From assembly GCA_964645155.1 (NCBI GenBank), contig CAZYBG010000003.1:7093-71092 (forward strand): DNA of 64,000 bases. The letters are read 5' to 3'. Numbering within the stretch: position 1 is the first letter of the stretch; every line of letters starts with the position of its first letter. The stretch comes from an uncultured Rhodobacterales bacterium. GTDB lineage: Bacteria; Pseudomonadota; Alphaproteobacteria; Rhodobacterales; Rhodobacteraceae. This document shows, piece by piece, positions 28,081-43,565 of this stretch. The position numbers were made by a program, and so were the translations under genes. The notes under the pieces were generated by a model. The model ran no database searches. It was not told where the DNA came from and saw nothing but the letters and a program-made list of their open reading frames with translations.

Positions 28081-28482
28081 TCAGCGCTCCTCGGGCTCCA
28101 GTTCGGGTCCCAGCACGACCGCCTCGATCCGGTTGCCCTCGGGGTCGCGGACGAAGGCGGCATAGTAGTCGGACCCGTATTCGGGCCTGAGGCCGGGCGC
28201 CCCGTCATCGGCGCCCCCGGCGCCCAGCGCCGCGTCGTGGAACGCGCGGACCGCTGCCCGCGAAGGCGCGCGAAACGCATGGTGCGTCTGCGACGGCGCG
28301 TTGGGAACGTCGACGGCGCTGATCAGGGTGAAGTCGTCGCGGCCGTCGCGCTGGAAGCTCGCGGTGCGGCCATTGGCCTCGCCCGGCACGATCCCGAGCG
28401 GCCGGAACGCGGCCTCGTAGAAGCGCCGGGCGCGGTCGAGGTCCGTCACCGCGAGCGTCACATGGTCGATCATCGAAGTCAT
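28081..28482 (-). CDS. VOC/glyoxalase-family protein
   Basis: 133 aa. IDHVTLAVTDLDRARRFYEAAF is the typical glyoxalase/bleomycin-resistance fold N-terminus. Confidence 0.8.
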   Translation of the reverse strand: MTSMIDHVTLAVTDLDRARRFYEAAFRPLGIVPGEANGRTASFQRDGRDDFTLISAVDVPNAPSQTHHAFRAPSRAAVRAFHDAALGAGGADDGAPGLRPEYGSDYYAAFVRDPEGNRIEAVVLGPELEPEER

Positions 28483-28571
28483 GGCAGGGTTCCCTTCCTG
28501 GCGTCGGGCAGGGGCGCGCCCGGGCCCCTCTCTGCGGCCGTCGCGGGCTTGGTTCGATCCGGGCCTGTCTC

Positions 28572-28596
28572 AACCGGCGAGGCGGGCAGACGTTCC
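28572..28596 (-). promoter_or_regulatory. EcfG-type promoter candidate (GGAAC-N16-GGTT) toward the VOC gene
   Basis: Plus strand AACC 28572-28575 and GTTCC 28592-28596, about 90 nt upstream of ATG 28482. Confidence 0.55.
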
Positions 28597-28662
28597 CGAG
28601 CGGCCCTCGGCGCGCGGCCGGGCGCGACCCCGGCTTCCGCCCGGCGGGATGGGCCGCAAGGG

Positions 28663-28687
28663 GGAACATGTGCCGCCCTGCCCGGTT
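28663..28687 (+). promoter_or_regulatory. EcfG-type promoter candidate (GGAAC-N16-GGTT) toward Mn catalase
   Basis: GGAAC 28663-28667 and GGTT 28684-28687, 33 nt before ATG 28720. Confidence 0.6.
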
Positions 28688-28719
28688 GCAGGGCCTCCCG
28701 GCAAGACAGAGGAGCCGAC

Positions 28720-29556
28720 ATGTTCCACCATTCTTCGAAACTTCAGTACGAGGTGCGGGTCGACCGCCCGAACCCCGTCTTCGCCAAGTGCCTCCAGCAG
28801 GCCATCGGCGGGATCGAGGGCGAGATCCGCGTGGCCATGCAGTACTTCTTCCAGGCGATGGGCGCGCACGGCGACGCCCGGTACCGCGACATGCTGATGA
28901 TGACCGCGACCGAAGAACTGTCGCATATCGAGTTCCTCGGCCACGCCGTTGCACTGAACCTCGACGGTGCGCCGGTGTCGATGCAGGACGAGGCCGCGCA
29001 GGACCCCGTCGTTCATGCGATCCTCGGCGGCATGAACCCGCGGCATCTCCTGTCCGCCGGCCTCGCGGCGATGCCGGTCAACGCGAACGGGGTGCCGTTC
29101 GACATGAGCCATGTCTATGCCACCGGCAACATCGGTGCCGACATGCTGGCCAACGCCACCGCCGAGGCCGGTGGCCGCGTCCTCGCCAGCCGGCTCTACA
29201 ACATGACTGACGATGCCGGCATGAAGGACATGCTGTCGTTCCTGATCGCGCGCGACACGATGCACCAGCAGCAATGGCTCGCCGTGCTGGAGGAGCTGGG
29301 CGGTTGGCAGGCGCAGCTGCCGATCCCGAACGCGACGCCGCCCGAGCACGAGGCGACCGAGCACAGCTACTACTTCCTGAACACCTCGCTCGACGCGCCG
29401 ACGCCCGAGGGCCGCTGGACCTCGGGGCCGTCGCTCGACGGGCGGGCGGAGTTCTCGGTGCGCGAGCGGGTGGAACCGCTGGGGCAGCAGGCGAGCCTCG
29501 GCCACGCCCGGCCGCAATCCGGGGCGCAACGCGAGCAGATCGGAAAGGGAGCATGA
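28720..29556 (+). CDS. Manganese catalase family protein
   Basis: ATG 28720 with GAGGAG RBS. KLQYEVRVDRPNPVFAKCLQQAIGGIEGEIRVAMQYFFQA and EELSHIEFL motifs. Confidence 0.85.
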   Translation: MFHHSSKLQYEVRVDRPNPVFAKCLQQAIGGIEGEIRVAMQYFFQAMGAHGDARYRDMLMMTATEELSHIEFLGHAVALNLDGAPVSMQDEAAQDPVVHAILGGMNPRHLLSAGLAAMPVNANGVPFDMSHVYATGNIGADMLANATAEAGGRVLASRLYNMTDDAGMKDMLSFLIARDTMHQQQWLAVLEELGGWQAQLPIPNATPPEHEATEHSYYFLNTSLDAPTPEGRWTSGPSLDGRAEFSVRERVEPLGQQASLGHARPQSGAQREQIGKGA

Positions 29557-29783
29557 AGATGGACGAGATCGACCGCGAGGAGCATGTCCGCCGGCGCGCC
29601 TATCAACTCTGGGAGCAGGAGGGCCGGCCCGAAGGCCGCGACACCGCGCACTGGAGCCAGGCCGAGGCCGAACTCGAGGTCGCGCCGGTGCGCGGCGACG
29701 GTGTCGCCGGCGATGGCGCGGACAACTCTGGCACCCGCCCGTCGCGGGCGCCAGCGCGGAACGCGCGTCGGGCCGAAGCCTGA
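29553..29783 (+). CDS. DUF2934-domain protein
   Basis: ATGA overlap with the catalase gene. RRRAYQLWEQEGRPEGRDTAHWSQAEAEL is the DUF2934 signature. Confidence 0.7.
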   Translation: MKMDEIDREEHVRRRAYQLWEQEGRPEGRDTAHWSQAEAELEVAPVRGDGVAGDGADNSGTRPSRAPARNARRAEA

Positions 29784-29921
29784 AAGCGCCACCGCCTGCC
29801 CCGAAGCACATGCAGGCAGGGCAGGCGACCGGCCGTCGGGCGCAACCGGACCGCTGGCCCCCGGGACAATCCCGGGATCATCCGGTGGGCATGGCCGCGC
29901 CGCTGCGCCGGACGCGCGACC

Positions 29922-30917
29922 TCATTCGGCCGCGGTCGGCGCGGCGCGGTCCGGCGGCCCGTCGCGGTAGAGCGCGAACCAGGCCGCCGTTTCGGCCAGG
30001 CCACGGTCGAGCGGCACGAGGGGCTGCCAGCCGAGGCAGTGCCGCGCCCGCGAGATATCGGGCCGCCGGCGCCGGGGGTCGTCGGCCGGCAGCGGCCGGA
30101 ACAGGATTTCGGACCGTGTCGGGATCATGCGCTGCACCATCCGCGCCAGGTCGAGAACGGTCACCTCGACCGGGTTGCCGAGATTGACCGGTCCGGGCGG
30201 GCGCTCCTCCACCTCCATGAGGGCGAGGAGCCCGCGCACCAGGTCGGAAACATAGCAGAACGACCGCGTCTGCCGCCCGTCGCCGTAGACGGTGAGAGGC
30301 CGGCCATCCAGCGCCTGCACGATCAGGTTCGAGACGATGCGCCCGTCGTCCGGCCGCATCCTGGGCCCGTAGGTGTTGAAGATCCGCGCCACCCGGACAT
30401 CGACATTGCCGGCGCGCAGGTAGTCGAAGCACAGCGTCTCGGCCGCGCGCTTGCCTTCGTCGTAACAGGCCCGTGTCCCGATCGGGTTGACATGGCCCCA
30501 GTAGTCCTCTGCCTGCGGATGCTGCTCGGGGTCGCCGTAGACCTCGCTCGTCGAGGCCTGCACGTACCGTGCGCCGTGCCGCCCGGCGAGTTCCAGGAGC
30601 CGCCCGGTTCCCACCACGTTGGTCATCATCGTGCGGATCGGCTCGGCCTGATAGTGCGGCGGGGAGGCCGGCGAGGCGAGGTTGTAGAGAAAGTCGATCC
30701 GCTCGGCCGGAAGGGCGTCGGTCGCGACATCAGCGCGCCAGAGGCGGAAGTTCCGGTCGTTCCGGAGCGGCCCGACATTGGCGGGGCGGCCGGTCTGGAA
30801 GCTGTCGACGCAGATCACGCGATGGCCGCGGGCGAGGAGCGCATCGCACAGATGCGATCCGACAAAGCCCGCACCGCCCGCGACGAGGGCGGTCTTCGGG
30901 AAGGACGCGACATTCAT
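29922..30917 (-). CDS. uxs: UDP-glucuronate decarboxylase (UDP-xylose synthase)
   Basis: 331 aa. GGAGFVGSHLCD, STSEVYGDP, YDEGKRAAETL, ARIFNTYGPRM. Last gene of the operon. Confidence 0.85.
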   Translation of the reverse strand: MNVASFPKTALVAGGAGFVGSHLCDALLARGHRVICVDSFQTGRPANVGPLRNDRNFRLWRADVATDALPAERIDFLYNLASPASPPHYQAEPIRTMMTNVVGTGRLLELAGRHGARYVQASTSEVYGDPEQHPQAEDYWGHVNPIGTRACYDEGKRAAETLCFDYLRAGNVDVRVARIFNTYGPRMRPDDGRIVSNLIVQALDGRPLTVYGDGRQTRSFCYVSDLVRGLLALMEVEERPPGPVNLGNPVEVTVLDLARMVQRMIPTRSEILFRPLPADDPRRRRPDISRARHCLGWQPLVPLDRGLAETAAWFALYRDGPPDRAAPTAAE

Positions 30918-31996
30918 GGTGTGACCTCCGTTGCAGTCGGGATACGGGCGAGCGCCACCGCAAGCTCCTCGGCACGCGCCGGTCCGGTATGTCGCGACAG
31001 AACGATGGCGCGCGCGCGGGCCGCCATGCGCCGGCGCTCCGCCTCGGGCATCGCAAGTGCGGCGACGACGTCGTCGCCGCTGTCGGCGATGGCGATCGCC
31101 TCGCCTTCCGGAAAGAGGTCAGCAAGTCCGTTCCAACGGTCCGACAGGACGGGCGTTCCGCAGGCTGCGGCCTCGAACAGCCGGACCGACGGCGCGTGCC
31201 CCGACCGGCGCATCGCCGCACGGGTCAGGTTCAGCGTGAAGCGCTGTCGGCCGTAGAAGGCGGCATGCTCGGCCGGCGGCAGATGCTCGATCCGCTCGAC
31301 ATTCGGCGGCCAGGCGATGCCTTCGGGATATTGCGCGCCGGCGACGACGAAGCGCGCCTGCGGCATCCGGCGCGCCGGATCGAGGAGCAGCGCCTCGAGC
31401 CCCGGCTGCCGGTCGGCACTGTAGGTGCCGAGGTAACCCAGATCCCACGACGGCACGAGCCCCTCCGGCCGGTAGAGATCGGGATCGACCGCGCAGAAGA
31501 GCGCCTCGGCGCGCCGCGCGCCGAGGCGCTCCAGCGTCTTCAGCGCGGCCCCGCCGGCGAACGAGAGGTAGAGGTCGAACGCGGCAAGCTGCCGCGGCAG
31601 GAGGTGGCTCGAGCCGCCGGCCGCGAGCTGTTCGAGCGTCACCGGCGTGTCGATGTCGTAGAACACCAGCCGCGCCGGGCGCTCCCGGATCAGCAGGTCG
31701 ATCAGCGCCGCGCCCTCGGGCACGCAGGAGCCGACGATCACCGCGTCGGCCCGCCGCAGCCGGGGGCGGAAAGCGGCGAGCCCGCCCAAATCGTCGTAGA
31801 GCGCGAAGTCGCAGAAGTCCGGCCGCGGCAGGTCGCGGTGCGCGGCGTACCAGGGCTGGTCGCGCTCCAGGAACAGCACCCGGTGGCCCCCGGCGGCGAG
31901 GCCGCGCAGCAGCGCGCGCCAGGTCGTGGCATGGCCATTGCCCCACGACGACGAGAGCGACAGGCCGAAGACCACGATGTCGAGCGGGCGAGTCAT
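30914..31996 (-). CDS. CgeB-family (Glyco_trans_1_2 / DUF3880-like) glycosyltransferase, paralog A
   Basis: ATGA overlaps at both ends. FGLSLSSSWGNGHATTWRALLRGLAAGGH and VRLFEAAACGTPVLSD. Confidence 0.65.
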   Translation of the reverse strand: MTRPLDIVVFGLSLSSSWGNGHATTWRALLRGLAAGGHRVLFLERDQPWYAAHRDLPRPDFCDFALYDDLGGLAAFRPRLRRADAVIVGSCVPEGAALIDLLIRERPARLVFYDIDTPVTLEQLAAGGSSHLLPRQLAAFDLYLSFAGGAALKTLERLGARRAEALFCAVDPDLYRPEGLVPSWDLGYLGTYSADRQPGLEALLLDPARRMPQARFVVAGAQYPEGIAWPPNVERIEHLPPAEHAAFYGRQRFTLNLTRAAMRRSGHAPSVRLFEAAACGTPVLSDRWNGLADLFPEGEAIAIADSGDDVVAALAMPEAERRRMAARARAIVLSRHTGPARAEELAVALARIPTATEVTP

Positions 31997-33072
31997 GCGG
32001 TCTCCCTCCGGGCAAGTATGCCGAGGCGCTCGACGACCTGTTCGGCGCGGTGGGCATAGGTGTGCTGGGCGAGCACCCGGGCGCGGGCCGCGGCGCCGAT
32101 CCGCGCCGCCGCCTCGGCCGACAGGCCGGCGAGGATCTCGGCGACGTCCCGACCGTCGCGCGCGACGAGGATCTCGGCGCCCGGCTCGAGAAAGAGCGGG
32201 ATCCCCTCCCAGGCGTCGGTGATCAGGCAGGCGCCGGCGCCCGCGGCCTCGAACACCCGGGTCGCGGGCGAGAAGCCGACCTCGGCCATGCTGTCGCGCG
32301 CCACGTTCAGGACCGCGCGGGGCGTGCAGTTGAAGGCGTTGTGGTCGGCCGTGCCGACATGGCCGAGCGCCAAGACATTGGCCGGCAGGCCCTCGCCCCA
32401 GCCGGACCCGCCGAGAAGGAACCGGTCGGCGGGCCTGAGGCGGGCCGGGCGGAGGAAGAACTCGGCCGCCCGCGCCTCGCGGTCCGGCAGCCGGTTCGCG
32501 AGGAACCCCAGATCGGCGGCGAACCGTGGGTTCGGGGCAACCGGGTGATGGGTGTCGGGGTCGAGCGCGTTGTAGACCGGGACGCAGTCGCGCGCGCCCA
32601 GGGCGCGGTAGCCGAGGACCACCGGCGCGCCGCCGCCATAGGTCAGGATCAGATCGAAGGCGGGAAGCTGCTGCCGGAGCGGATGCGCCGAATCGGCGCG
32701 CATCGCGGCCAGCGTCGCCGGCGCGTCGACATCCCACCAGAGCCGGAGCGCGTCGGGACGCGCCTGCGCCAGCACCGCCTCGCGCAGCCGGTCGTCCTCG
32801 AACCCGATGCCGGAGGCCACGACGACGGCGTCGGCGGCCCCGGCGCAGGCCGCGGCCGAGGCAAGACCGGCCGACGTGCCGGGCCAGACGTTGACGCGGC
32901 ACCAGTCGGGCATCGCGATGTCGCGGTGCTGCCGACGCTCCCACACGTCGGGCTCGTGGAAGGTGATCTCGAAGCCGCGCGCCGCGAGGGCCCGGAGCAG
33001 GCCGCGGTAGTAGGTGGCGGCGCCGTTCCAGTACGAGGACAGCAGGCTCGAGCCGTAGAACGCGAGCTTCAT
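31993..33072 (-). CDS. CgeB-family glycosyltransferase, paralog B
   Basis: YGSSLLSSYWNGAATYYRGLLRALAARG and TRVFEAAGAGACLITD. ATGA overlaps at both ends. Confidence 0.65.
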   Translation of the reverse strand: MKLAFYGSSLLSSYWNGAATYYRGLLRALAARGFEITFHEPDVWERRQHRDIAMPDWCRVNVWPGTSAGLASAAACAGAADAVVVASGIGFEDDRLREAVLAQARPDALRLWWDVDAPATLAAMRADSAHPLRQQLPAFDLILTYGGGAPVVLGYRALGARDCVPVYNALDPDTHHPVAPNPRFAADLGFLANRLPDREARAAEFFLRPARLRPADRFLLGGSGWGEGLPANVLALGHVGTADHNAFNCTPRAVLNVARDSMAEVGFSPATRVFEAAGAGACLITDAWEGIPLFLEPGAEILVARDGRDVAEILAGLSAEAAARIGAAARARVLAQHTYAHRAEQVVERLGILARRETA

Positions 33073-34178
33073 TCGGCGGCCTCCCGCACGCCGGCCCCGA
33101 GCAGGCGCAGGAGCCCGAGAAGCTGTTCGGCCCGGTGCCGGCAGGTATGGCGCGCGGCGATCGTCGCGAGACCGTTCGCGGCGAGCTCTCCGGCGAGCGA
33201 CGGGTCGCCGAGCACGGCCGCAAGATGGCGCTCCATCGCGGCGCCGTCGCGGGCGATCAGGAAGTCCTTCTCAGGCCGGAACAGGCCCTCGACGTCGTCC
33301 CACGGCGCCGAGACCAGCGGTATCCCGCAGGCCAGCGCCTCGAAGACGCGGATCGTGGGGATGCCGGGCAGCGCCTCCACATAGGGCTGCCGCGGCACGT
33401 GGACGGTGACGCGGTGGCGGGCAAATACCTCTGGCACGCAGGCATTGGCGACCCAGCCGCGATAGGCGATCCCGGCCCGGGCCAGCCGCTGCCGCACCGC
33501 ATCGGGGTAGCGCACGCCGCACACCTCGGCGGCGAGACCGAGCCGGGCGACCGGGCCGGTCAGGTAGTCCTCCAGTTCCCGCGCCCGTTCGCCGTCGCCC
33601 CAGTTGCCGATCCAGACGAGATCGCCCTTGCGCGCGATGTCGGGGCGCGGGCGGAACAGCGTGTCGTCGGCCGCCTCGTGCCAGGTGAAGACCTGCCGGC
33701 CCCAGCCGGCGGCAAGGTAGCGCTCGCGCAGCGCCTCGCCGAACGCCAGCACGGCGTCATAGCCCGAAAGGTCGAGCCCGGCGATCTCGCGGTCGGCCGA
33801 GACGGCACGATGATGGGTGTCGTGGAAGAGCAGGCGGAACCGCGCGCCCCGCGCCCGGCAGCGGCCGAGCCGGCGGACGATCGCCGGATCGGTCCATTCG
33901 TGGACGACGACGACATCGGCCCCGGTGACGCGGTCGGCCACGTCTTCGGCGCCGTGGTGGAGTTCGGTCCGCAGGTCGGGAAACGCCCGGCCGAAGGCGA
34001 CGAGCGCCGCGGCGCCGGCCTCGGCGATGAGGTTCCCGCGCGACCACGATGCGGCGGGTTCGATCGCGCGGCAGGTATGCCCCAGCGCCTGCAGCGCCCG
34101 CATGACGCCACGCTGGAAATGCGCGTTGCCGTGGTTCCAGTCAGAGACCAGCGAATGGGTGAGAAAGACGAACTGCAT
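33069..34178 (-). CDS. CgeB-family glycosyltransferase, paralog C
   Basis: LTHSLVSDWNHGNAHFQRGVMRALQALGH and IRVFEALACGIPLVSA. ATGA overlap downstream. Confidence 0.65.
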   Translation of the reverse strand: MQFVFLTHSLVSDWNHGNAHFQRGVMRALQALGHTCRAIEPAASWSRGNLIAEAGAAALVAFGRAFPDLRTELHHGAEDVADRVTGADVVVVHEWTDPAIVRRLGRCRARGARFRLLFHDTHHRAVSADREIAGLDLSGYDAVLAFGEALRERYLAAGWGRQVFTWHEAADDTLFRPRPDIARKGDLVWIGNWGDGERARELEDYLTGPVARLGLAAEVCGVRYPDAVRQRLARAGIAYRGWVANACVPEVFARHRVTVHVPRQPYVEALPGIPTIRVFEALACGIPLVSAPWDDVEGLFRPEKDFLIARDGAAMERHLAAVLGDPSLAGELAANGLATIAARHTCRHRAEQLLGLLRLLGAGVREAAE

Positions 34179-34181
34179 CGG

Positions 34182-35258
34182 CTATTCCGCCGCCTGCCGG
34201 ACGGTGAGCCGCCGGTAGAGGGCCAGCATGTCGTCGGCCTGCCGCTCGGGCGCGAACCGAAGTGCCCGCGCCTGCGCCGCGGCGCCGCGGCGCGCCCGCT
34301 CCTCGGGGTCGTCGGCAAGCCGGTCGAGAAGCGCGGCGAGCGCCACGGGATCGCGCGGGTCGAAGAAGGCCGCCGCCCCCTCCCACAGCTCGCGATAGGT
34401 CGGGATGTCGCTCAGCACCAGCGGGCGGCCGAGCCGCGCAGCCTCGAGGGCGGCAAGGCCGAAGGGCTCGTAGAGCGAGGGCGACACAAAGATCGCGGCC
34501 TCGCGCATGGCGGCGATCGCCGCGGCGTGCGGAACCGGCCCGAGAGCGCGTGCGGGGGCGGGGTGCAGGCGCTGGCCGTCATACGCTTCGGTGGCGCCCA
34601 CGAGAGTGACCGGCACGCGGGAGAGCCGCGCCGCGGCGACGAGGACCGCGCCGTTCTTGCCGCGGTCCCACCACCGGCCGCAGGCGATGGCGCCGCGGCC
34701 GCCGCCGGGAGCGCCCGTCTCCACCCGGCTCGTGTTCGCGACCGCCGCCACGTCGGCAAGGCCGTAGACCTCGGCGGTCTCGCGGGCGTGGGCGCGGCTC
34801 GGCGCCACCACCGCGGCCGCCCGCGCCAGGCCGCGGCGCGCCAGGGCCTCGTGCCAGGCGAAGCCGGCCGGTGCCGGCCGGCCCTCGACCGCACGGAACC
34901 AGGTCCCGAGGCACGAATGGCAGACCGCCACGATCGGCTTGCCGATCGCCAGGTCGGCCGCCTGCGTCGGCAGGTTGACCTGGACGAGATCGGGGCGGTG
35001 CATCCTGACGAGCAGCGCCAGCCAGCGTCCGACGCCGGCAAGATCGCCCGGACGGCGCGCGCGCCAGTCCAGCGGCAGATCGCCCCAGACCAGCATCCCG
35101 GCGGCCGCGGCCTCGGCGACCTGGGCGCCCGACGGGCGGGGGCCGAGGCCGGCGAAGACGATCCGGCAGCCACGATCGGCCAGTGCCCCGCCGAGATCTA
35201 TCGCGTAGCGCCAGATCCCACCGACCGCATCGACGGTCATCAGCACCGCCGTGCTCAT
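34182..35258 (-). CDS. Glycosyltransferase family 4
   Basis: ATG 35258 in an ATGA overlap with the upstream gene. GGIWRYAIDLGGAL and LYEPFGLAALEAARLGRPLVLSD. Confidence 0.75.
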   Translation of the reverse strand: MSTAVLMTVDAVGGIWRYAIDLGGALADRGCRIVFAGLGPRPSGAQVAEAAAAGMLVWGDLPLDWRARRPGDLAGVGRWLALLVRMHRPDLVQVNLPTQAADLAIGKPIVAVCHSCLGTWFRAVEGRPAPAGFAWHEALARRGLARAAAVVAPSRAHARETAEVYGLADVAAVANTSRVETGAPGGGRGAIACGRWWDRGKNGAVLVAAARLSRVPVTLVGATEAYDGQRLHPAPARALGPVPHAAAIAAMREAAIFVSPSLYEPFGLAALEAARLGRPLVLSDIPTYRELWEGAAAFFDPRDPVALAALLDRLADDPEERARRGAAAQARALRFAPERQADDMLALYRRLTVRQAAE

Positions 35259-37240
35259 GCGCTCACCCTCTCCGCCGCAACCGGCAGCCGATGTTCTGCG
35301 AGCCAGCCGGCCAGGCGCCGCAGCCCCGGCCGCCAGCCGACACGCGGCGCCCAGCCCGTTGCGGCGCGGAGTGCCGCCGTGTCGGCCACGAACCACGCCT
35401 GGTCGCCCGGCCGCCAGTCGGCCTGGCGCACCTCCATCGGGCCGCCGGTGATGCGGCCGATCTCGTCGATCACATGGCGCAGGCTGACCGCGTTCGCCGG
35501 CCCGCCGCCGAGGTTGAAGGCACGGCCCCCGACGGCGGCGAAGCGCGCCATGGCGAGGCGGTAGGCGGCGACCGCGTCGGACACCTCGCACACGTCGCGG
35601 ACCTGGCGGCCGGTGCCGTAGACGGTGATCGGCCGCCCCGCAAGGGCCGCGATCAGGAAATGCGCCACCCAGCCCTGGTCCTCGGTGCCGAACTGGCGCG
35701 GCCCGTAGATGCACGACATCCGCAGCACCGCCGCCGGCAGCCCATAGCTCTTGGCGTAGTCGAGCACGTACTGGTCGGCGACCCCCTTCGAACAGCCATA
35801 GGGCGTGCAGAAGGCAAGCGGCGCACGCTCGTCGATGCCCATCGCCAGCGCGGGGTCGGTCGGGGCGCAGGCGGCCTCGGTCTCGACGATCGCCAGATCG
35901 GAGAGGTCGCCGTAGACCTTGTTGGTGGATGCGAAGATCAGCGGGATCTCCCGCCCGCTGGCGCGGACCGCCTCGAGAAGGTTCAGCGTGCCGCGCGCGT
36001 TCACCTCGAAATCCTCGACCGGCGCCGCGAGGCTCGTCGTCACCGCGGTCTGGGCGGCGAGGTGATAGATCTCGCCGGCGTTCCGCACCGCCGCGGCAAG
36101 CGCCCGATCGTCCCGCAGGTCGGCGAGAACCGGGTGCACGCGGCGCGGGTGCCGCGCTGTCAGCCAGGCGAGGTTCTCCTCCACCCCCGGGCGCGACAGG
36201 TTGTCGAGCACGACGACGTCGCGCGCATCGGCCGCAAGGCTGTCGACGAGGTTCGAGCCGACGAAACCCGCCCCGCCGGTGACCACCACCGGCCGGGCCG
36301 CCGGGCCGAGCGCCGGGGCGGCGAGGCCCGCGACCTCGCGCAGCCGGTCGAGGCCGCCGTCGCAGAGCATCCTCGCCAGCAGTTTCGGCTGGTTGTCGGA
36401 CGTGACCGCACCGAGGTGATAATGGCGCGGATCGAACCAGAGCCCGTCCTGCGTCGCTACGTCGGGAGCGAGGTCGCGCCAGCCGTACCAGTAGAGCCGG
36501 TCGGCGGGCGCCGCGAGCGCGCTCACGAACCGGCGCGCCTGTTCGACCTGATCGTTGCGCCAGGTGGAATAGCCGGCCTCGGTGATCCAGATCTGCGCGG
36601 CCGGGTTGTGCCGGTCGAGCACCGCGCGCATCTCGCCCAGGTGCAGGTCCCAGCCCGACCAGTGGCCGGCCTCGCTTTCCCAGGTGCCGGGAAAGCCGTG
36701 GAACCCCACCGCATGCATCAGCGCCAGAAGCCCGCGCCGGCCCATGAGATCGAGCCAGAGCGGATCGAACGGGCACGGACCGCCCAGCACGGGCTTCCAG
36801 CCGCGATGCCGCGCCCAGTGCGCCGCCATCCCGATCATCTCGCAGAACAGGTCGAAATCGGGGTCGGCCCGCCAGTCCCAGTCGAGCAGGTTGTTGGGCT
36901 CGTTCCAGAGCTCGACATGCTCGAAATGGTCACCGTGGCGGGTCAGCACCAGGTCGATGAAGTCGGCGAAGTCCTGAAGCCGCTCGGGCGGGCCGGAGCT
37001 GCGCCCGGTGCGCGACAGCGAGGGCGGCGTGTAGTGGATGCAGGGCATCAGCTCGATCTCGGCGGCAAGGCGCGGGATCAGCCAGTCGAACCACTCCCGC
37101 CCGCCGGGAGCGTGGTATTCTGCCCACGAAAGATGCGTGCGCAGCCACGCGGCGCCCGAACCGGTCAGGCCCGGCATCACCGCCTCCACATGCGCGCGGT
37201 CGCCGGGGCGGAACCACTCGACAAAGCCGAAGGCGGTCAC
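35255..37240 (-). CDS. Fusion: clan GH-A-like TIM-barrel glycosidase domain + CDP-paratose/tyvelose 2-epimerase-like SDR domain
   Basis: GTG 37240 in a GTGA overlap. N-terminal half has ELWNEPN (acid/base-like) and IWITEAGYS (nucleophile-like). C-terminal half has VTGGAGFVGSNL, DNLSRPG, STNKVYGDL, PYGCSKGVADQY, DQGW, GRQVRDV. Confidence 0.7.
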   Translation of the reverse strand: MTAFGFVEWFRPGDRAHVEAVMPGLTGSGAAWLRTHLSWAEYHAPGGREWFDWLIPRLAAEIELMPCIHYTPPSLSRTGRSSGPPERLQDFADFIDLVLTRHGDHFEHVELWNEPNNLLDWDWRADPDFDLFCEMIGMAAHWARHRGWKPVLGGPCPFDPLWLDLMGRRGLLALMHAVGFHGFPGTWESEAGHWSGWDLHLGEMRAVLDRHNPAAQIWITEAGYSTWRNDQVEQARRFVSALAAPADRLYWYGWRDLAPDVATQDGLWFDPRHYHLGAVTSDNQPKLLARMLCDGGLDRLREVAGLAAPALGPAARPVVVTGGAGFVGSNLVDSLAADARDVVVLDNLSRPGVEENLAWLTARHPRRVHPVLADLRDDRALAAAVRNAGEIYHLAAQTAVTTSLAAPVEDFEVNARGTLNLLEAVRASGREIPLIFASTNKVYGDLSDLAIVETEAACAPTDPALAMGIDERAPLAFCTPYGCSKGVADQYVLDYAKSYGLPAAVLRMSCIYGPRQFGTEDQGWVAHFLIAALAGRPITVYGTGRQVRDVCEVSDAVAAYRLAMARFAAVGGRAFNLGGGPANAVSLRHVIDEIGRITGGPMEVRQADWRPGDQAWFVADTAALRAATGWAPRVGWRPGLRRLAGWLAEHRLPVAAERVSA

Positions 37241-38343
37241 GACACGAGCCCCCGCGCTTCCAGTTCGCGCCGCATCGCTGCGCCGCGGTCGGTGCCGGGC
37301 GCGCCGCGCACCCAGTCGGCGAAATCTGCCAGCGCGTGCTCGAGCGGATGTTCGGGCACGAAGCCGAGCAGCGTCTCCGCGCGGCCGATATCGGCAAAGC
37401 AGTTGCGGATGTCGCCGGCACGGAACCGGCCGAGAATCTCGGGCTCGATCCCGGGCCTGCCCATCGCGCCGGCCAGAAGTTCGGCGACCTGGCGGATCGA
37501 GTAGGCGCGCCCCGAGCCGACATTGATCGCCTCGCCCGCCACGCCGTCGCGTTCGAGCGCGAGGCGGAAGGCGCGCGCCACGTCGCGGACATGCACGAAG
37601 TCGCGCCGCTGCCGGCCGTCCTCGAAGATCGTCGGGCGCGCCCCGGCCCCGATCCGCGCGGCGAAGTTGGCCAGCACGCCGGTATAGGGGTTAGAAAGCG
37701 CCTGCCCGGCCCCGAAGACGTTGAAGAGCCTGAGCGCGACCGCCGGAATGTCGTAGGCCGCGCCGAAGATCAGCACCGCCCTTTCCTGGGCGTACTTGGT
37801 CAGCGCGTAGATCGAGGCGAGGTCCGGGCGCTTGGCTTCGTCGGTGGGCAGCGGCGTCAGCGCCGCGCCGTCGGGACCGACCGGGTCCCAGCGTCCGCCG
37901 CGCAGGTCCCGCACGGACCGGCGCGCGCCGGCGAACAGCGCGCCGCCGGGCAGCGCGTAGCGGCCCTCGCCGTAGATGCTCATCGAGGAGGCAACCACGA
38001 TCCGGTCCACCGGATGCTCGGCGATGGCCTCGAGCAGCACCGCCGTCCCGAGGTCGTTCGCGCCGACATAGCGGGCGATCTCGTACATCGACTGGCCGAC
38101 ACCGACCTCGGCGGCGAGGTGGATCACCGCGTCGCATCCGCGCAGCGCGTCCCCGAGGCGGCCGGCGTCGCGGACATCGCCGCGGACGACCTCGGCGCCG
38201 TCCGGAACTTCCGGCGCATTGCCGCCATGGACCTGGTCGATCATCGCGTCGTAGAGGCGCACCTCGTGCCCTGCGGCAAGCAGTTCGGCGGCGACGTGGC
38301 GGCCGATGAAGCCGCAGCCGCCGGTGATCAGGACATGGGACAT
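37237..38343 (-). CDS. NAD-dependent epimerase/dehydratase (SDR)
   Basis: 368 aa. ITGGCGFIGRH, HLAAEVGVGQS, ALTKYAQE (YxxxK). First gene of the operon. Confidence 0.8.
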   Translation of the reverse strand: MSHVLITGGCGFIGRHVAAELLAAGHEVRLYDAMIDQVHGGNAPEVPDGAEVVRGDVRDAGRLGDALRGCDAVIHLAAEVGVGQSMYEIARYVGANDLGTAVLLEAIAEHPVDRIVVASSMSIYGEGRYALPGGALFAGARRSVRDLRGGRWDPVGPDGAALTPLPTDEAKRPDLASIYALTKYAQERAVLIFGAAYDIPAVALRLFNVFGAGQALSNPYTGVLANFAARIGAGARPTIFEDGRQRRDFVHVRDVARAFRLALERDGVAGEAINVGSGRAYSIRQVAELLAGAMGRPGIEPEILGRFRAGDIRNCFADIGRAETLLGFVPEHPLEHALADFADWVRGAPGTDRGAAMRRELEARGLVS

Positions 38344-38379
38344 GGGCGGGGCTCCTCGACGCGTTTCGCGAGGTTCCGG

Positions 38380-38404
38380 AACCGGAGGTGGTCGGGTTTG
38401 TTCC
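38380..38404 (-). promoter_or_regulatory. EcfG-type promoter candidate (GGAAC-N16-GGTT) toward the SDR..CgeBx3..uxs operon
   Basis: Plus strand AACC 38380-38383 and GTTCC 38400-38404. The -10 lies 37 nt upstream of ATG 38343 and overlaps the 12-bp palindrome GGTTCCGGAACC (38372-38383). Confidence 0.55.
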
Positions 38405-38601
38405 CGGCTTTCCAGCGACTTCGGCGGAAGCGGGGGCGGAAGCGGGCCGGTTCTTCAACTTCATCAATGACTTCCGTGGAGACCGCCGGCAGCCGGTCGG
38501 GCGCCGCCGGCGGCACGGCAGCCGCGACCGGGAACAAAGCGCCGGCAGCGCCGGTTCGCCCCCCGCGCCGCGTCCCGGCGCGACCAACCCCGGGGGCTGC
38601 A

Positions 38602-39585
38602 ATGGATGGTGGACGGATCGGCGCGCGGCTCGAGGCGGCCCAGGTCACCGGGCCCGGCCGGGTCGCGGTCGTGGAACTGCCGCTGCCGGAGCCGGGCCCC
38701 GACGAGGTGCGGGTGCGGATCGAGGGCTGCGGCGTCTGCGCCTCGAACCTCGGCCCCTGGTCCGGCCCGCCATGGATGAGCTTTCCGCTGCCGCCGGGTG
38801 CGCTCGGCCACGAGGCCTGGGGGCGGATCGACGCGGTCGGCGCAGCGGTGAGCCCGGCGCGCCGGGGCGAGCGCGTGGCGATCCTCGGCTTCCACGGCTA
38901 TGCAAGCCACGACATCGTTCCGGCCGACGCGGCGCTGCCGCTGCCCGCCGCGCTCGAGGGGCAGGCCGTGCCGGCCGAGGCGATCGGCTGCGCGATGATG
39001 ATCTTCGGCCGGACCCGCATCCAGCCCGGCGAAATCGTTGCCATAGTCGGCATCGGCTTTCTCGGGGCGCTCCTGACGCGGCTCGCCGCCGCCGCGGGTG
39101 CGCGGGTCATCGCGCTCTCGCGGCGCGCCAGCAGCCTCGCCCTCGCCCGCCGCTGCGGTGCGTCCGAGACGATCGAGATGGCCGACCACGGCGCGATCCT
39201 CGCCCGTCTTGCCGAGCGGACCGGCGGCCGCGCCTGCGATGTCGCAATCGAGTGCACCGGGCACCAGTGGCCCCTCGACCTCGCGGCCGAAGCCCTGCGG
39301 GAAGGCGGGCGGCTGGTGATCGCGGGCTACCACCAGGACGGCCCGCGGCAGGTCAACATGCAGCTCTGGAACTGGCGCGCCCTCGATATCGTCAACGCCC
39401 ATGAGCGCGACCGCGGCAAGCTGCTGGCGGCGATGCGCGACGGGATCGCCGCCGTCGCCGACGGGCGGCTCGAACTCGCACCGCTGCTGACGCACCGCTA
39501 TTCGCTCGGCCGCCTCGCAGCCGCGCTCGACGCCACGCGCGACAAGCCCGAAGGTTTCGTCAAGGCGCTGGTGGTGCTGCGATGA
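38602..39585 (+). CDS. Zinc-type medium-chain alcohol dehydrogenase (MDR family)
   Basis: ATG 38602. GCGVCASNL, GHEAWGRI, Rossmann motif VGIGFLG. Confidence 0.75.
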   Translation: MDGGRIGARLEAAQVTGPGRVAVVELPLPEPGPDEVRVRIEGCGVCASNLGPWSGPPWMSFPLPPGALGHEAWGRIDAVGAAVSPARRGERVAILGFHGYASHDIVPADAALPLPAALEGQAVPAEAIGCAMMIFGRTRIQPGEIVAIVGIGFLGALLTRLAAAAGARVIALSRRASSLALARRCGASETIEMADHGAILARLAERTGGRACDVAIECTGHQWPLDLAAEALREGGRLVIAGYHQDGPRQVNMQLWNWRALDIVNAHERDRGKLLAAMRDGIAAVADGRLELAPLLTHRYSLGRLAAALDATRDKPEGFVKALVVLR

Positions 39586-40664
39586 CCCGGCCCGCGATGG
39601 CCCGGCCGCGCGTCGGCTTCCTCGGTCTCGGCTGGATCGGGCGGCACCGGTTCGAGGCGCTGGCCGGCACCGGCGCGATCGACGTCGTCGCCCTTGCCGA
39701 TACCGCGCCCGAGGCGGTCGCGGCCTGCGCCGGCGCCTGCCCCGGCGCCCGGCTCGGATCGACGCTCGACGATGTCCTCGCCGCACGCCCGGAAGGCGTG
39801 GTGATCGCGACCCCGTCGGCGCTGCATGCGGCGCAGGCCGTCGCGGCGCTCGAGGCCGGGGCGGCGGTGTTCTGCCAGAAGCCGCTCGGCCGGAACGCGG
39901 CCGAGACGCGGGCGGCCGTCGCTGCGGCGCGCCGGGCCGACCGGCTGCTTGCCGCCGACCTCTCCTACCGCCACACCGCCGGCATGGTGGCGATCCGGCA
40001 GGCGGTGGAGGGTGGCCGCATCGGCCGCCCGCTGGCGCTCGACCTGACGTTTCACAACGCCTACGGGCCGGACAAGCCCTGGTTCCACGACCGCGCGCTT
40101 TCGGGTGGCGGATGCGTGATCGACCTCGGCGTGCATCTGGTCGACCTCGCGCTGTGGCTGACCGGATGGCCCGGCCTGCGCTGCACCTCGGCGCAGCTCT
40201 TCTCCGGCGGGGCGAGGCTCTCCGTCGGCGACCCGGCGGTCGAGGACTTCGCGATGGCCACGCTCGAGACCACGGCAGGCGGTGTCGTCCGCATCGCCTG
40301 TTCGTGGAACCTGTCCGCCGGCTGCGATGCGGTGATCCGCGCCGAGATCCATGGCGACCGCGGCGGCGCCGTCCTCGCCAATGTCGGCGGCTCGTTCTAC
40401 GATTTCGAGGCCCATCTCCTCCACGGCCGCGAGCGGCAACTGCTGGCGGTTCCGCCGGACGACTGGGGCGGCCGCGCAGCGGTGGCCTGGCTGGAGCAAC
40501 TCGCCAATGGCGCCGGCTTCGACCCGGCCTGCGAGGGCCTCGTCACGCTCGCCGAGGCTCTGGACGCAATCTACGGTCACTCGCCCGGCGCGGCGGTGTC
40601 GGCGCCGCGCGGTGCGGCGGCCTCCCTCGGCGCCCGCAGGAAGGCGGCAGGGCCCTTGCGGTAG
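39582..40664 (+). CDS. Gfo/Idh/MocA-family oxidoreductase
   Basis: ATGA overlap. VGFLGLGWIGRHR N-terminal Rossmann motif and FCQKPL block. Confidence 0.8.
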   Translation: MTRPAMARPRVGFLGLGWIGRHRFEALAGTGAIDVVALADTAPEAVAACAGACPGARLGSTLDDVLAARPEGVVIATPSALHAAQAVAALEAGAAVFCQKPLGRNAAETRAAVAAARRADRLLAADLSYRHTAGMVAIRQAVEGGRIGRPLALDLTFHNAYGPDKPWFHDRALSGGGCVIDLGVHLVDLALWLTGWPGLRCTSAQLFSGGARLSVGDPAVEDFAMATLETTAGGVVRIACSWNLSAGCDAVIRAEIHGDRGGAVLANVGGSFYDFEAHLLHGRERQLLAVPPDDWGGRAAVAWLEQLANGAGFDPACEGLVTLAEALDAIYGHSPGAAVSAPRGAAASLGARRKAAGPLR

Positions 40665-40721
40665 CGAAACGCGCCGGGGCCGCAATCGCGCGCCCCGGCA
40701 CTGCAGTATCAGGCGGCGGTC

Positions 40722-41225
40722 TCAGGCGGCCATCCGGTTCAGCCGCTCCTCGGCGACGCGCGAAAGCTTGGCGTCGGCCGCCTTCTCCTCCTCCAGCGTC
40801 TGCTTCAGAAGCTCGGCGCAATCGGTCCGGCCGAGTTCCTGCGACCAGGCGATCAGGGTTCCGTAGCGGGTGATCTCGTAGTGCTCGACCGCCTGCGCGG
40901 ACGCGGCGATGGCGGCATCGAGGACGCTCGAATCCTCGACCTCGCTGGCGATCTCCTCGGCTTCCTTGATGATGCCGTCGATCGCCGGGCAGTTGGTTCC
41001 GCCGGCTTCCTCACCCAGCAGCGCGAACACCTGCTCCAGCCGCTCGACCTGCCGCTCGGTCTCGTGCAGGTGCGCCTGCAGTCCGTCGCGCAGCGCCCCT
41101 TCCGAGGCCTTGTCGATCATCTTCGGCAGGGCGTTCACGATCTGCTTCTCGGCGTAGTAGATGTCGCGAAGCTGGTGCATGTAGAGGTCGTCCATCGACT
41201 GGATGTCATAGGAAAAAAGCGCCAT
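40722..41225 (-). CDS. DUF892 (YciE/YciF-like) ferritin-like stress protein
   Basis: 167 aa. LYMHQLRDIYYAEKQIVNALPKM and AVEHYEITRYGTLIAW are signature blocks. Confidence 0.85.
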   Translation of the reverse strand: MALFSYDIQSMDDLYMHQLRDIYYAEKQIVNALPKMIDKASEGALRDGLQAHLHETERQVERLEQVFALLGEEAGGTNCPAIDGIIKEAEEIASEVEDSSVLDAAIAASAQAVEHYEITRYGTLIAWSQELGRTDCAELLKQTLEEEKAADAKLSRVAEERLNRMAA

Positions 41226-41324
41226 TCATGGCCTCCTGACTTCGGGTTGCGTCGTTCATGGGGCGGGGTCGATCGCCAGCTCGGTGACCACTGCCAACCG
41301 TCTGTCGCCCCTCAGGGCAGGGGC

Positions 41325-41349
41325 AACCGCAGCGCCCGCCGATTGTTCC
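41325..41349 (-). promoter_or_regulatory. EcfG-type promoter candidate (GGAAC-N16-GGTT) toward the DUF892 gene
   Basis: Plus strand AACC 41325-41328 and GTTCC 41345-41349, about 100 nt upstream of ATG 41225. Confidence 0.55.
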
Positions 41350-41389
41350 CCGATCGGCGGCCCGGCCACGGCCCGGTCCGATGGCACAG

Positions 41390-41875
41390 TCAGATCGCCC
41401 GGTCGCCGAGTTCCGCCATCACCATCGCGCGGGCGCGGTTCACGCGGCTCTTGATCGTGCCGACCTCGCAGCCGCAGATGCGGGCCGCCGTCTCGTAGCT
41501 TTCGCCCATCATCACGACCAGGACGAGCGTCTCGCGGTAGTGGTTCGGCAGGCGCTGAACCACCCTCATCAGCTCGCCGCCGCGCACCACCCACTCCTGG
41601 GTCGAGGCGCTCGATGCCGTGCCCGACACGCAGTCCTCCGAACCGGTGCGCTCGCGCTTGGTCTTGGCCAGCGTGTTGAAGAACGAATTGCGCATGATCG
41701 TGAATAGCCACGCCCGCAGCCGCGTGCCCGGGGTGAAGCTGTCGATGTTCGCCAGCGCCCGCACCAGCGTGTCCTGGACAAGATCATCGGCATCGGGGCG
41801 GTTGCGGCACAGGACATAGGCATAGGCCCTGAGCGCCGGCAGGAGCGCCACGACATCGGCCCGGACATCCGGCAT
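41390..41875 (-). CDS. ecfG: ECF sigma factor, EcfG/RpoE2-type (general stress response)
   Basis: ATG 41875. LPALRAYAYVLCRNRPDADDLVQDTLVRALANIDSFTPGTRLRAWLFTIMRN and ICGCEVGTIKSRVNRAR closely follow the S. meliloti RpoE2 pattern as I recall it. Confidence 0.8.
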   Translation of the reverse strand: MPDVRADVVALLPALRAYAYVLCRNRPDADDLVQDTLVRALANIDSFTPGTRLRAWLFTIMRNSFFNTLAKTKRERTGSEDCVSGTASSASTQEWVVRGGELMRVVQRLPNHYRETLVLVVMMGESYETAARICGCEVGTIKSRVNRARAMVMAELGDRAI

Positions 41876-41951
41876 GTTCCTTGCTGCTTCGACCACGTGT
41901 TGCGAACCCGTCGACAGAGACGATACCCCCGAGCGGGGGCGTTGCGCGCAT

Positions 41952-41977
41952 AACGCCGTTGTCGCGACAGCAGTTCC
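41952..41977 (-). promoter_or_regulatory. EcfG-type promoter candidate (GGAAC-N17-CGTT), autoregulatory position upstream of ecfG
   Basis: Plus strand AACG 41952-41955 and GTTCC 41973-41977. Lies between the NepR-like ORF stop (42019) and the ecfG ATG (41875). Confidence 0.6.
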
Positions 41978-42018: not shown

Positions 42019-42204
42019 TCAGCCCTTCGGGCGGGCGCGATCCGATCCCCGGTTCACCTGACAGATCGCATCGTCGAGGCGGCGGGCGAGGTCGACGATC
42101 TCGGCAGGCGCGCCGCTGCGTTCGAAGGCCTGCAGGAGTTCGGAGAAGGCGGCGGCCAGCTCTTCATCCACGCGGGAGGGATCGGATTTGGGGTCGCCTG
42201 ACAT
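42019..42204 (-). CDS. nepR: Small NepR-like anti-sigma factor candidate
   Basis: 61-aa ORF directly upstream of ecfG. Helical segment ELAAAFSELLQAFERSGAPAEIVDLARRLDDAI loosely fits the NepR pattern. Weak call. Confidence 0.4.
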   Translation of the reverse strand: MSGDPKSDPSRVDEELAAAFSELLQAFERSGAPAEIVDLARRLDDAICQVNRGSDRARPKG

Positions 42205-42453: not shown

Positions 42454-42837
42454 ATGCCGGACCGGTTCGCTACAGGAACGAAAACCCGCCGTGCGGTGCT
42501 CGGCGATGCCCATGTCGACGCGGCCGAGGCCGCCCAGACTGACTTCGACGCGCCGTTCCAGCGGCTGATCACCGAAGGCGCCTGGGGCACCGTCTGGTCC
42601 GACGACACGATCACCCGGCGCGAGCGGTCGATGCTGACGCTGGCATTGCTGGCCGCCACCGGCAACTTCGAGGAGATACCGATGCACGTGCGCGCCACGC
42701 TGAACACCGGCGCGAGCCGGGCGGACGTGATGCAGGCCTTCCTGCACGTGGCGATCTACGCCGGCGTGCCGCGGGCGAACCACGCGATCCGGCTGGCCCG
42801 CGAGACCTATTCCAGGATCGAGGAGGACGGCACATGA
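42454..42837 (+). CDS. pcaC: 4-carboxymuconolactone decarboxylase
   Basis: ATG 42454 with [26 protein letters not shown] and [11 protein letters not shown] motifs. ATGA overlap with pcaH. Confidence 0.8.
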
Positions 42838-43562: not shown

Positions 43563-43565
43563 GCG

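Follow-up and report, generated by a model that had tools for sequence, protein, structure and literature searches.

We analyzed a 64,000-nucleotide stretch of DNA from an uncultured Rhodobacterales bacterium (assembly GCA_964645155.1, contig CAZYBG010000003.1, positions 7,093 to 71,092; referred to here as the window), with a focus on a nine-gene locus at 29922-40664 that encodes predicted nucleotide-sugar enzymes, glycosyltransferases, a glycoside hydrolase-like domain, and two oxidoreductases. This locus is very likely a conserved glycan module controlled by the alphaproteobacterial general stress response (GSR). Judging from a promoter motif, the conservation of this motif, and published induction data from Sinorhizobium meliloti, the module appears to belong to the regulon of the EcfG/RpoE2 σ factors. 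As for its role, the overall explanation that we favor, with about an even chance of being right, is that the module makes, in response to stress and within the cytoplasm, a defined oligo- or polysaccharide or glycoside that contains xylose. A previous annotation made from the letters alone (the sequence-only reading) had treated the locus as an uncharacterized pentose-glycan locus; its gene-by-gene part holds, and the functions that it considered (an intracellular target, protein glycosylation, or a compatible solute or oligosaccharide) are narrowed here, but it missed the EcfG-type general-stress regulatory context.

Given that the G+C content of the window (∼72%) makes raw lists of open reading frames (ORFs) noisy, we called genes from a third-position GC frame plot combined with a start-codon scan and read the junctions directly off the sequence. 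The genes and predicted promoters of the module, with the genes numbered g1 to g9, are as follows.

37237-38343, minus strand: g1, 368 amino acids (aa), first gene of the operon; extended short-chain dehydrogenase/reductase (SDR), GalE-like or UDP-sugar (UDP-uronate) 4-epimerase-like
35255-37240, minus strand: g2, 661 aa, consisting of the two domains in the next two lines
36296-37240, minus strand: N-terminal domain of g2 (aa 1-315), clan GH-A (β/α)8 barrel, PslG/GH39-like, without signal peptide
35255-36295, minus strand: C-terminal domain of g2 (aa ∼318-651), CDP-tyvelose 2-epimerase-like extended SDR
34182-35258, minus strand: g3, 358 aa, GT4 family glycosyltransferase with a GT-B fold
33069-34178, minus strand: g4, 369 aa, CgeB-type GT-B glycosyltransferase, paralog 1
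31993-33072, minus strand: g5, 359 aa, CgeB-type GT-B glycosyltransferase, paralog 2
30914-31996, minus strand: g6, 360 aa, CgeB-type GT-B glycosyltransferase, paralog 3
29922-30917, minus strand: g7, 331 aa, last gene of the operon in this genome; predicted UDP-glucuronate decarboxylase (UDP-xylose synthase, UXS), called from PDB sequence similarity and motifs
38602-39585, plus strand: g8, 327 aa, divergent from g1-g7; short medium-chain dehydrogenase/reductase (MDR), zinc-type alcohol/polyol dehydrogenase-like
39582-40664, plus strand: g9, 360 aa, divergent from g1-g7; Gfo/Idh/MocA sugar or cyclitol oxidoreductase
38380-38404, minus strand: predicted EcfG-type promoter of g1-g7, GGAAC-N17-GTT, whose GTT ends 36 nucleotides (nt) before the ATG of g1
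38531-38556, plus strand: predicted EcfG-type promoter of g8-g9, 45 nt before the ATG of g8
38378-38402, plus strand: second, distal motif directed toward g8, overlapping the g1 promoter motif

A GTGA overlap joins g1 to g2, ATGA overlaps join g2/g3, g4/g5, g5/g6, and g6/g7 on the minus strand as well as g8/g9 on the plus strand, and a 3-nt gap separates g3 from g4. The seven coupled genes and two divergent oxidoreductase genes described in the sequence-only reading were thus recovered with all their coordinates and junctions. Scans of the locus for σ70 promoters and intrinsic terminators returned nothing above the shuffled expectation, and Rfam and tRNA scans of the whole window gave no matches.

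The regulatory assignment starts from the pattern GGAAC-N15-18-GTT, which occurs 14 times in the window compared to an expectation of 2.6. In the spacer between g1 and g8, positions 38378-38404 form a 27-bp palindrome, GGAAC-N17-GTTCC, that is EcfG-type on both strands. We then searched the same pattern in the 82 loci with enough upstream sequence among the 84 loci fetched for comparison. The motif is present on the g1 strand in 68 of them and on the opposite strand in 61, where 0.033 would be expected per locus and strand. On the g1 strand, 62 of the 68 motifs have a 17-nt spacer, with a median of 43 nt between GTT and ATG. The palindromic arrangement recurs in 6 of the 82 loci; the spacer of Cereibacter sphaeroides holds two GGAAC-N17-GTTCC palindromes (positions 8714-8740 and 8829-8855 of locus L001), and both this spacer and its Rhizobium etli ortholog carry the motif in both directions.

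Expression data from S. meliloti, whose module lies on pSymB (SMb20238-47), agree with this assignment. Upon RpoE2 overexpression, SMb20238-45 rise by log2 values of 0.78 to 1.62, and SMb20246 and SMb20247 rise by 2.54 and 2.56, respectively (Lang et al. 2018, PMC6180224, Data Set S1). The same data set shows the pSymB stretch SMb20236-52 induced by RpoE2 as a block, including neighbors of the module such as a myo-inositol-1-phosphate synthase gene beside it (PMC6180224).

To see how widely the module is distributed, we scanned one genome per species with an alignment of the g2 barrel and ran the nine proteins by tblastn against all 84 loci. Relatives of the barrel occur in at least 579 species genomes; the 80 best matches, which we examined for taxonomy, all come from Alphaproteobacteria, with an uncultured Salipiger as the best relative (77%). 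Homologs of g2 and g5 with 65 to 78% identity are found in Rhodobacterales, Hyphomicrobiales (Rhizobiales), Sphingomonadales, and Acetobacteraceae. The order g1-g2-g3-g4-g5-g6-g7 is kept in essentially every complete locus, with g8-g9 mostly divergent upstream, and this recurrent gene order indicates that the arrangement is not due to chance. C. sphaeroides has the same nine genes in the same divergent layout, and in R. etli CFN42 the module is found on plasmid p42b (RHE_RS22255-22295), followed by a TIGR04290 methyltransferase gene. Such a gene is found after g7 in 36 loci and is the only recurrent neighbor, the flanking genes otherwise differing between genomes; it is absent from our window.

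Several variants of the module were observed. In four loci (L050, L064, L081, and L083), g8-g9 are codirectional with the operon, while loci without g8/g9 (L063, L067-70, and L087) carry a gene for a B12-binding radical SAM protein between g2 and g3 (L069, ∼11995-13290; L087, 12023-13135), whose product may tailor the same compound by a different chemistry. The g7 gene is missing from L067-70, L073, L075, L079, and L080. In S. meliloti, the g2 ortholog (SMb20244, "tyv"; L004, 5633-6694) consists of the epimerase half only, and the GH-A barrel is absent from the operon. A further example is a plasmid of Xanthomonas sacchari (NZ_CP010410.1; L085, 487-12265), which carries all nine genes in one codirectional string, g7-g1-g2-g8-g9-g3-g4-g5-g6, followed by a hypothetical gene and a methyltransferase gene. 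This single string suggests that g8 and g9 belong to the same pathway as the other genes, and the finding of a rearranged module in a gammaproteobacterium, beside a gene for a σ54-dependent regulator, implies horizontal transfer together with a change of regulator. Its distribution leads us to conclude that the module is passed on whole between replicons and has even reached a gammaproteobacterium. The expectation that the genes are coconserved is thereby borne out.

Turning to the enzymes, Pfam Epimerase/GDP_Man_Dehyd matches were obtained for g1, the C-terminal half of g2 (residues 318-651), and g7, and none of the nine proteins received an equivalog-level NCBIfam assignment. The clearest case is g7, which matches human UXS1 (2b69 and 4gll) with 381 bits (E value of 5e-113, residues 8-314), while the next SDR family reaches 136 bits. 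The protein contains GGAGFVGSH at the NAD site, TSE at 122-124, and YDEGKR at 152-157, which we take to be the GxxGxxG, T/S-x-E, and Y-x-x-x-K motifs of NAD binding and catalysis in UXS enzymes; its R. etli ortholog is named UDP-glucuronic acid decarboxylase family protein by PGAP. Standing clearly above the other SDR subfamilies, g7 is a predicted UDP-glucuronate decarboxylase, as the sequence-only reading had proposed. It differs from the characterized SmUxs1, a candidate identity that we rejected since the characterized uxs1/uxe pair of S. meliloti sits at SMb20458/59.

For the remaining enzymes of the module, the predicted substrates go to family level. In g1, the Pfam Epimerase domain is matched in two stretches around an insert of ∼40 aa (residues ∼127-165); GxxGxxG and YxxxK (Y179-K183) are present, and the nearest PDB sequences are 6wjb/6wj9, MoeE5 (6kv9), and GalE. 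The SDR half of g2 scores 249 bits against TaTyvE of Thermodesulfatator (9rl0) and 248 bits against the Salmonella CDP-tyvelose 2-epimerase (1orr), followed at a distance by the next family (132 bits), and its YxxxK motif reads YGCSK. By similarity, this half would fall within the CDP-tyvelose 2-epimerase subfamily, of which TaTyvE interconverts CDP-glucose and CDP-mannose (PMC13098431), and the activity is predicted accordingly. The likeness to these enzymes extends over the full length (∼248 bits), but the g2 half is fused to a glycoside hydrolase-like domain and lies in a locus without genes for CDP-sugar synthesis. Of the two divergently encoded oxidoreductases, g8 (Pfam ADH_N and ADH_zinc_N) has sorbitol dehydrogenase and ketose reductase as PDB neighbors, and g9 (Pfam GFO_IDH_MocA) has inositol 2-dehydrogenase, 1,5-anhydrofructose reductase, and DgpA; their top NCBIfam matches, IolM and IolG, respectively, are both far below the cutoff.

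The N-terminal part of g2 (residues 1-315) matched no Pfam model and no PDB sequence. Its AlphaFold2 model, with a predicted local distance difference test (pLDDT) score of 94.4, shows alternating strands and helices forming a (β/α)8 barrel, for which Foldseek returned PslG as the top match (4zn2, 5bx9, and 9g17; GH39; E value of 1e-16; query-normalized TM-score [TMq] of 0.74), followed by GH5 and GH30 structures. In an alignment of 42 homologs, WNEP at 112-115 is invariant and TE at 220-221, ∼107 residues further on, is at least 90% conserved, suggesting E114 of the N-E-P motif as the acid/base and E221 as the nucleophile of a predicted retaining GH-A pair. Faint GH1 (PF00232) matches appear in a few homologs. 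At 17 to 18% identity to PslG, the barrel lies outside the GH39 family as CAZy defines it by sequence, and the structural model thus supports a GH-A assignment at the clan level. PslG, which is encoded in the psl operon of Pseudomonas aeruginosa, shares with the barrel the catalytic Glu pair and the setting of a hydrolase within a glycan biosynthesis operon. Unlike the bare barrel of 315 residues, however, PslG has ∼413 residues (target-normalized TM-score [TMt] of 0.58), and the g2 barrel is predicted to be cytoplasmic, is fused to an SDR epimerase, and is missing from the S. meliloti version of the module. The fusion of a GH-A domain to an epimerase, already suspected in the sequence-only reading, is thus upheld by the conserved catalytic motifs, the confident barrel model, and the relatives of the SDR half.

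The four transferases comprise one GT4 enzyme and three CgeB-type enzymes, in agreement with the earlier assignment. The former, g3, matches Pfam Glyco_transf_4 and Glycos_transf_1, contains an EX7E motif (EPFGLAALE), and shows the lowest conservation in the module (41 to 60% identity to orthologs). The latter match PF13524 (Glyco_trans_1_2) with 118.8 (g4), 132.1 (g5), and 133.8 bits (g6), corresponding to E values of 2e-34 to 6e-39, at a Pfam cutoff of 25 bits. While g5 and g6 are 36 to 37% identical to each other, g4 is 25 to 28% identical to both and 57 to 69% identical to its orthologs; with 25 to 37% mutual identity, the three are, as far as their sequences tell, old paralogs, and the columns R259, R272, and E275 are invariant across them. 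The AlphaFold2 model of g5 (pLDDT of 92.6) shows a complete GT-B fold of two Rossmann domains with TMq values of 0.66 to 0.76 to GT4 structures. The nearest are BshA (TMq of 0.76), MshA, PglA, GlgM, and sucrose-phosphate synthase, with PimA also among the neighbors, and orthologs of g5 are named "CgeB family protein" by NCBI. Each of the transferases g3 to g6 is conserved at ∼45 to 70% across orders, which suggests four fixed linkages and not a variable antigen. We also considered a role in antiphage defense, which weak Pfam matches to a GT4-conflict family had brought up, and rejected it, given that none of the nine proteins had a PADLOC match and that PF20706 stayed below the Pfam cutoff.

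All nine proteins are predicted to be cytoplasmic, in line with the sequence-only reading. No transmembrane (TM) helix is predicted in any of them, the highest mean Kyte-Doolittle hydropathy over 19 residues being 2.14 in a Rossmann region of g8, and no signal peptide was seen by eye or in a hydropathy scan at any of the nine N termini. Likewise, Pfam searches of the nine genes at 29922-40664 yielded no exporter, flippase, polymerase, synthase, or polyprenyl-phosphate transferase, and the flanks of ∼80 loci contain no recurrent transporter, priming enzyme, or outer membrane component, so the reported lack of export genes extends to the module in other genomes.

Taken together, these observations are compatible with the following scheme. 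On starvation or under osmotic, oxidative, or desiccation stress, σEcfG would be released and would fire two back-to-back promoters in the 258-bp spacer between g1 and g8, one driving g1-g7 and the other g8-g9. UDP-glucuronate would be converted into UDP-xylose by g7, while the 4-epimerase-type g1 and the Tyv-like, 2-epimerase-type half of g2 would each supply a further nucleotide-sugar isomer, and g8/g9 would oxidize or reduce a sugar or cyclitol that serves as the acceptor or as a residue of the product. The soluble GT-B enzymes g3 to g6, each probably making one specific linkage, would assemble a xylose-containing hetero-oligosaccharide, glycoside, or short polymer, which the PslG-like barrel of g2 would trim or transglycosylate and which, in many genomes but not in this one, the TIGR04290 methyltransferase would cap. 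Retained in the cell, the product would act as a stress protectant of the kind represented by trehalose, sucroglucans, or the methylated polysaccharides of mycobacteria. Whereas gene content, coconservation, and the conserved promoter motif were observed directly and the RpoE2 induction of the S. meliloti orthologs has been published, we infer the specificities of the enzymes, what the product is, its cytoplasmic fate, and the protection that it would afford. A cytoplasmic product is suggested by the lack of both a polyprenol-carrier start and a membrane crossing in the module, as well as by the small cytoplasmic acceptors used by the nearest structural relatives of g5 (BshA, MshA, GlgM, and sucrose-phosphate synthase). 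That the product is a soluble glycan of the cytoplasm is, in our estimate, just short of an even chance.

By function, the closest counterparts of such a scheme are compatible-solute glycosides induced by stress and the methylmannose polysaccharide (MMP) pathway of mycobacteria, a cytoplasmic pathway that combines transferases and methyltransferases with a chain-cleaving hydrolase (PMC9883506, PMC2674218). Compared by gene content, this pathway (ManT, MeT1, MeT3, and MmpH) and that for methylglucose lipopolysaccharide (MGLP) resemble the module in their soluble transferases, chain-processing hydrolase, O-methyltransferases, and lack of an exporter, but the module has a UDP-xylose supply, an optional methyltransferase, and a different regulator and taxon. 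Among rhizobial systems, the uxs1-aps cluster for an arabinose-containing polysaccharide (SMb20458 onward) likewise starts from a UDP-xylose synthase. In Sinorhizobium, the genes uxs1-uxe-apsS-apsE-apsH are controlled by c-di-GMP/CuxR and MucR and direct a Congo red-binding exopolysaccharide (PMC12560781). In contrast to the module, this cluster is a separate locus (uxe is SMb20459), is not under GSR control, and lacks CgeB-type genes, the fusion of a GH-A domain with a Tyv-like epimerase, and the MDR/Gfo pair. What sets the module apart among operons for nucleotide sugars and glycosyltransferases is therefore its regulator, the absence of export functions, its triple set of CgeB-type genes, and its fusion of a GH-A domain with a 2-epimerase.

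Several observations weigh against the scheme of a stress-induced cytoplasmic glycan. The promoter motif is short, and its -10 element here reads GGTT or TGTT instead of the canonical CGTT; moreover, 14 of the 82 loci have no exact motif before g1, g8 preceding g1 in some of them. The eight-gene operon of S. meliloti responds modestly, with ∼2- to 3-fold induction (PMC6180224). The locus contains no gene for the UDP-glucose dehydrogenase needed to feed g7, and the existence of loci without g7 indicates that xylose may not be an obligatory component of the product. Similarly, the S. meliloti module without a GH-A domain suggests that trimming is not essential everywhere. The nearest structural relative of the barrel, PslG, acts on an exported polysaccharide, and the missing TM helices are no proof of a soluble product, since soluble GT4 enzymes can act on lipids at the membrane surface.

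The last two points lead to the alternative of an envelope glycan or glycolipid, in which g3 to g6 would build on a lipid at the inner face of the membrane, unlinked housekeeping machinery would export the product, and stress would thereby remodel the cell surface. This lipid could be diacylglycerol or a lipid A/core intermediate, or else undecaprenyl phosphate if an unlinked enzyme primes it. Besides PslG, an exopolysaccharide-processing hydrolase, as the best structural match of the barrel, the presence of PimA, a GT4 enzyme acting on a membrane lipid, among the structural neighbors of g5 speaks for this alternative, and rhizobia reportedly have xylose- and arabinose-containing surface glycans, the documented example among the systems compared here being the separate uxs1-aps cluster. 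However, neither the ∼80 genomes nor the Xanthomonas plasmid associates the module with a priming transferase, flippase, polymerase, ABC exporter, or outer membrane component, the GH-A domain, which has no signal peptide, forms one protein with an NAD enzyme of the cytoplasm, and the very high conservation of each transferase across orders, at 60 to 70% identity, is unusual for surface antigen loci. On balance, we regard an envelope product as unlikely. A glycan that stays in the cytoplasm could also be attached to protein, with the CgeB-type enzymes O-glycosylating stress proteins and extending the glycan so as to alter solubility or stability during dormancy or desiccation. This idea draws on the PF13524 matches of g4 to g6 and the naming of their orthologs as CgeB family, on several small GSR proteins of unknown function encoded near the module, and on Bacillus subtilis CgeB itself, a putative UDP-sugar-dependent transferase proposed to act on Thr112 of CgeA in a topologically cytoplasmic compartment (PMC13577073). 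Compared at the level of Pfam domains, CgeB shares with the module enzymes the PF13524 domain and the GT-B fold, together with a cytoplasmic compartment, the lack of membrane anchoring, and expression in a dormant or stress-resistant state. In contrast to cgeAB, the module has no gene for a CgeA-like acceptor, belongs to nonsporulating Alphaproteobacteria, and combines three paralogs with a GT4 enzyme, linked nucleotide-sugar enzymes, a hydrolase, and oxidoreductases. Neither the hydrolase domain nor the two oxidoreductases have an obvious part to play in protein glycosylation. Given that the flanks of ∼80 loci contain no conserved candidate acceptor or small-protein gene beside the module, and that the evidence for the activity of CgeB is itself weak, this option is weakened and seems to us slightly less likely still.

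Finally, the product could be a glycoside or cyclitol natural product that does not act primarily as an osmoprotectant, its aglycone being tailored by the MDR/Gfo pair or the B12-binding radical SAM enzyme before glycosylation and O-methylation. The replacement of g8/g9 by the radical SAM gene in variant loci would fit, as would BshA and MshA among the structural neighbors of g5, the IolM and IolG matches of g8 and g9 (the top curated ones, far below the cutoffs), and the RpoE2-induced myo-inositol-1-phosphate synthase gene adjoining the S. meliloti module. However, the link to inositol consists of these subthreshold matches and the neighborhood of one genome, inositol-phosphate synthase is not among the recurrent neighbors of the module, and a simple glycoside would seem to need fewer than four transferases, which makes this the least probable of the three alternatives and one that we consider improbable.

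The module lies within a "general-stress island" (25947-41977 of the window), where EcfG-type motifs precede several stress-type genes in addition to g1 and g8.

23303-25888: HWE/HisKA_2 histidine kinase gene
26024-27986: operon for an apolipoprotein-like protein, a holin-X protein, and a DUF3618 protein, with an EcfG-type motif upstream
28081-28482: glyoxalase gene, with an EcfG-type motif upstream
28720-29556: Mn catalase gene, with an EcfG-type motif upstream
40722-41225: gene for a DUF892 protein, with an EcfG-type motif upstream
41390-41896, minus strand: gene for an EcfG-type extracytoplasmic function (ECF) σ factor (Pfam Sigma70_r2, PhyR_sigma2 [54 bits], and Sigma70_r4_2)
41952-41977, minus strand: motif GGAAC-N18-CGTT of the ECF σ factor gene itself, upstream of 41390-41896

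Mn catalase, glyoxalase, DUF892, holin-X/DUF3618, HWE kinase, and ECF σ factor genes are typical cargo of the alphaproteobacterial GSR. The ECF σ factor encoded at 41390-41896 is a candidate local regulator of the module, and an ECF σ factor gene is found near the module in 10 other loci. The likeness to the EcfG/RpoE2 regulon covers the motif, its position, and the neighbors (Mn catalase, DUF892 protein, HWE kinase, and ECF σ factor here, Ku in C. sphaeroides), and it speaks for regulatory membership, not for a functional identification. In C. sphaeroides, two Ku genes adjoin the module (L001/L002, 4945-6639), and in Sphingomonas melonis, a Ku promoter has been examined for possible direct control by EcfG (PMC6599016). 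A 61-aa ORF (42019-42204, minus strand) immediately upstream of the ECF σ factor gene has an acidic, helical sequence that recalls NepR by eye; we rejected this identification, as the ORF has no Pfam support and the motif of the σ factor gene lies between the two.

Beyond the aforementioned ORF, a block of aromatic catabolism genes (42496-45038) marks the end of the island.

Within 42496-45038: gene for a CMD-family protein
42834-44186: genes for protocatechuate 3,4-dioxygenase beta-like and alpha-like subunits
44202-45038: gene for a BKACE enzyme

At the other end of the window, an EcfG-type motif at 52-76 is followed by genes for a levansucrase (GH68, 146-1582) and a GH32 protein with a lectin-like domain (1575-3644), suggesting that fructan metabolism may be under stress control in this genome. 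A second glycan cluster, unrelated to the module, occupies 11566-19766 on the minus strand.

18090-19766, minus strand: response regulator fused to a GT28-C domain
16892-18172 and 15720-16892, minus strand: two GT4 genes
13954-15723, minus strand: fused ABC exporter
12710-13957, minus strand: APH-type kinase
11566-12762, minus strand: 398-aa protein without Pfam match

The fusion of a receiver domain with a glycosyltransferase (18090-19766) is unusual. We considered the ABC exporter of this cluster (13954-15723) as an export route for the product of the module and rejected it, given the distance of 14 kb, its membership in another glycosyltransferase cluster, and the lack of synteny with the module in other genomes.

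The label "uncharacterized" given to the locus is fair, as we found no open-access paper that discusses its orthologs in the main text. Full-text searches of the open-access literature for the S. meliloti locus tags SMb20236-49 returned no paper, literature searches yielded nothing to connect CgeB with the GSR or rhizobia, and no mention of TIGR04290 was found; a paper on bacterial UDP-apiose proved unrelated to the module. The cluster is not mentioned in the papers on R. etli EcfG, R. etli transcriptome sequencing, the S. melonis regulon, and R. sphaeroides PhyR. To our knowledge, it has so far appeared only as rows in supplementary tables. It is not discussed by Lang et al. 2018 (PMC6180224) either.

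Rhizobial inoculants, phyllosphere bacteria, and pathogens owe protection from desiccation, salt, and starvation to the alphaproteobacterial GSR, in whose regulon the module ranks among the larger coherent units of biosynthesis. We tentatively propose, as a possibility well short of an even chance, a hitherto unrecognized, class-wide "stress glycan" of Alphaproteobacteria, that is, a cytoplasmic pentose-containing oligo- or polysaccharide or cyclitol glycoside that is O-methylated in many species, made only under σEcfG, and one of the effectors still missing for GSR-dependent tolerance to desiccation and osmotic stress. If the product were merely a minor surface decoration, the module would be one more glycan operon with an interesting regulator. 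If, on the other hand, the proposal of a stress glycan is true, the three CgeB-type enzymes would define a role of the CgeB family outside sporulation. The module is present in genetically tractable models (S. meliloti, R. etli p42b, and C. sphaeroides), and the identity of its product would be a direct test of whether a glycan dedicated to this purpose inside the cell aids survival under stress, reveal the role of the fusion of a glycoside hydrolase with a 2-epimerase, and provide the first defined chemistry of the CgeB/PF13524 family outside spores.

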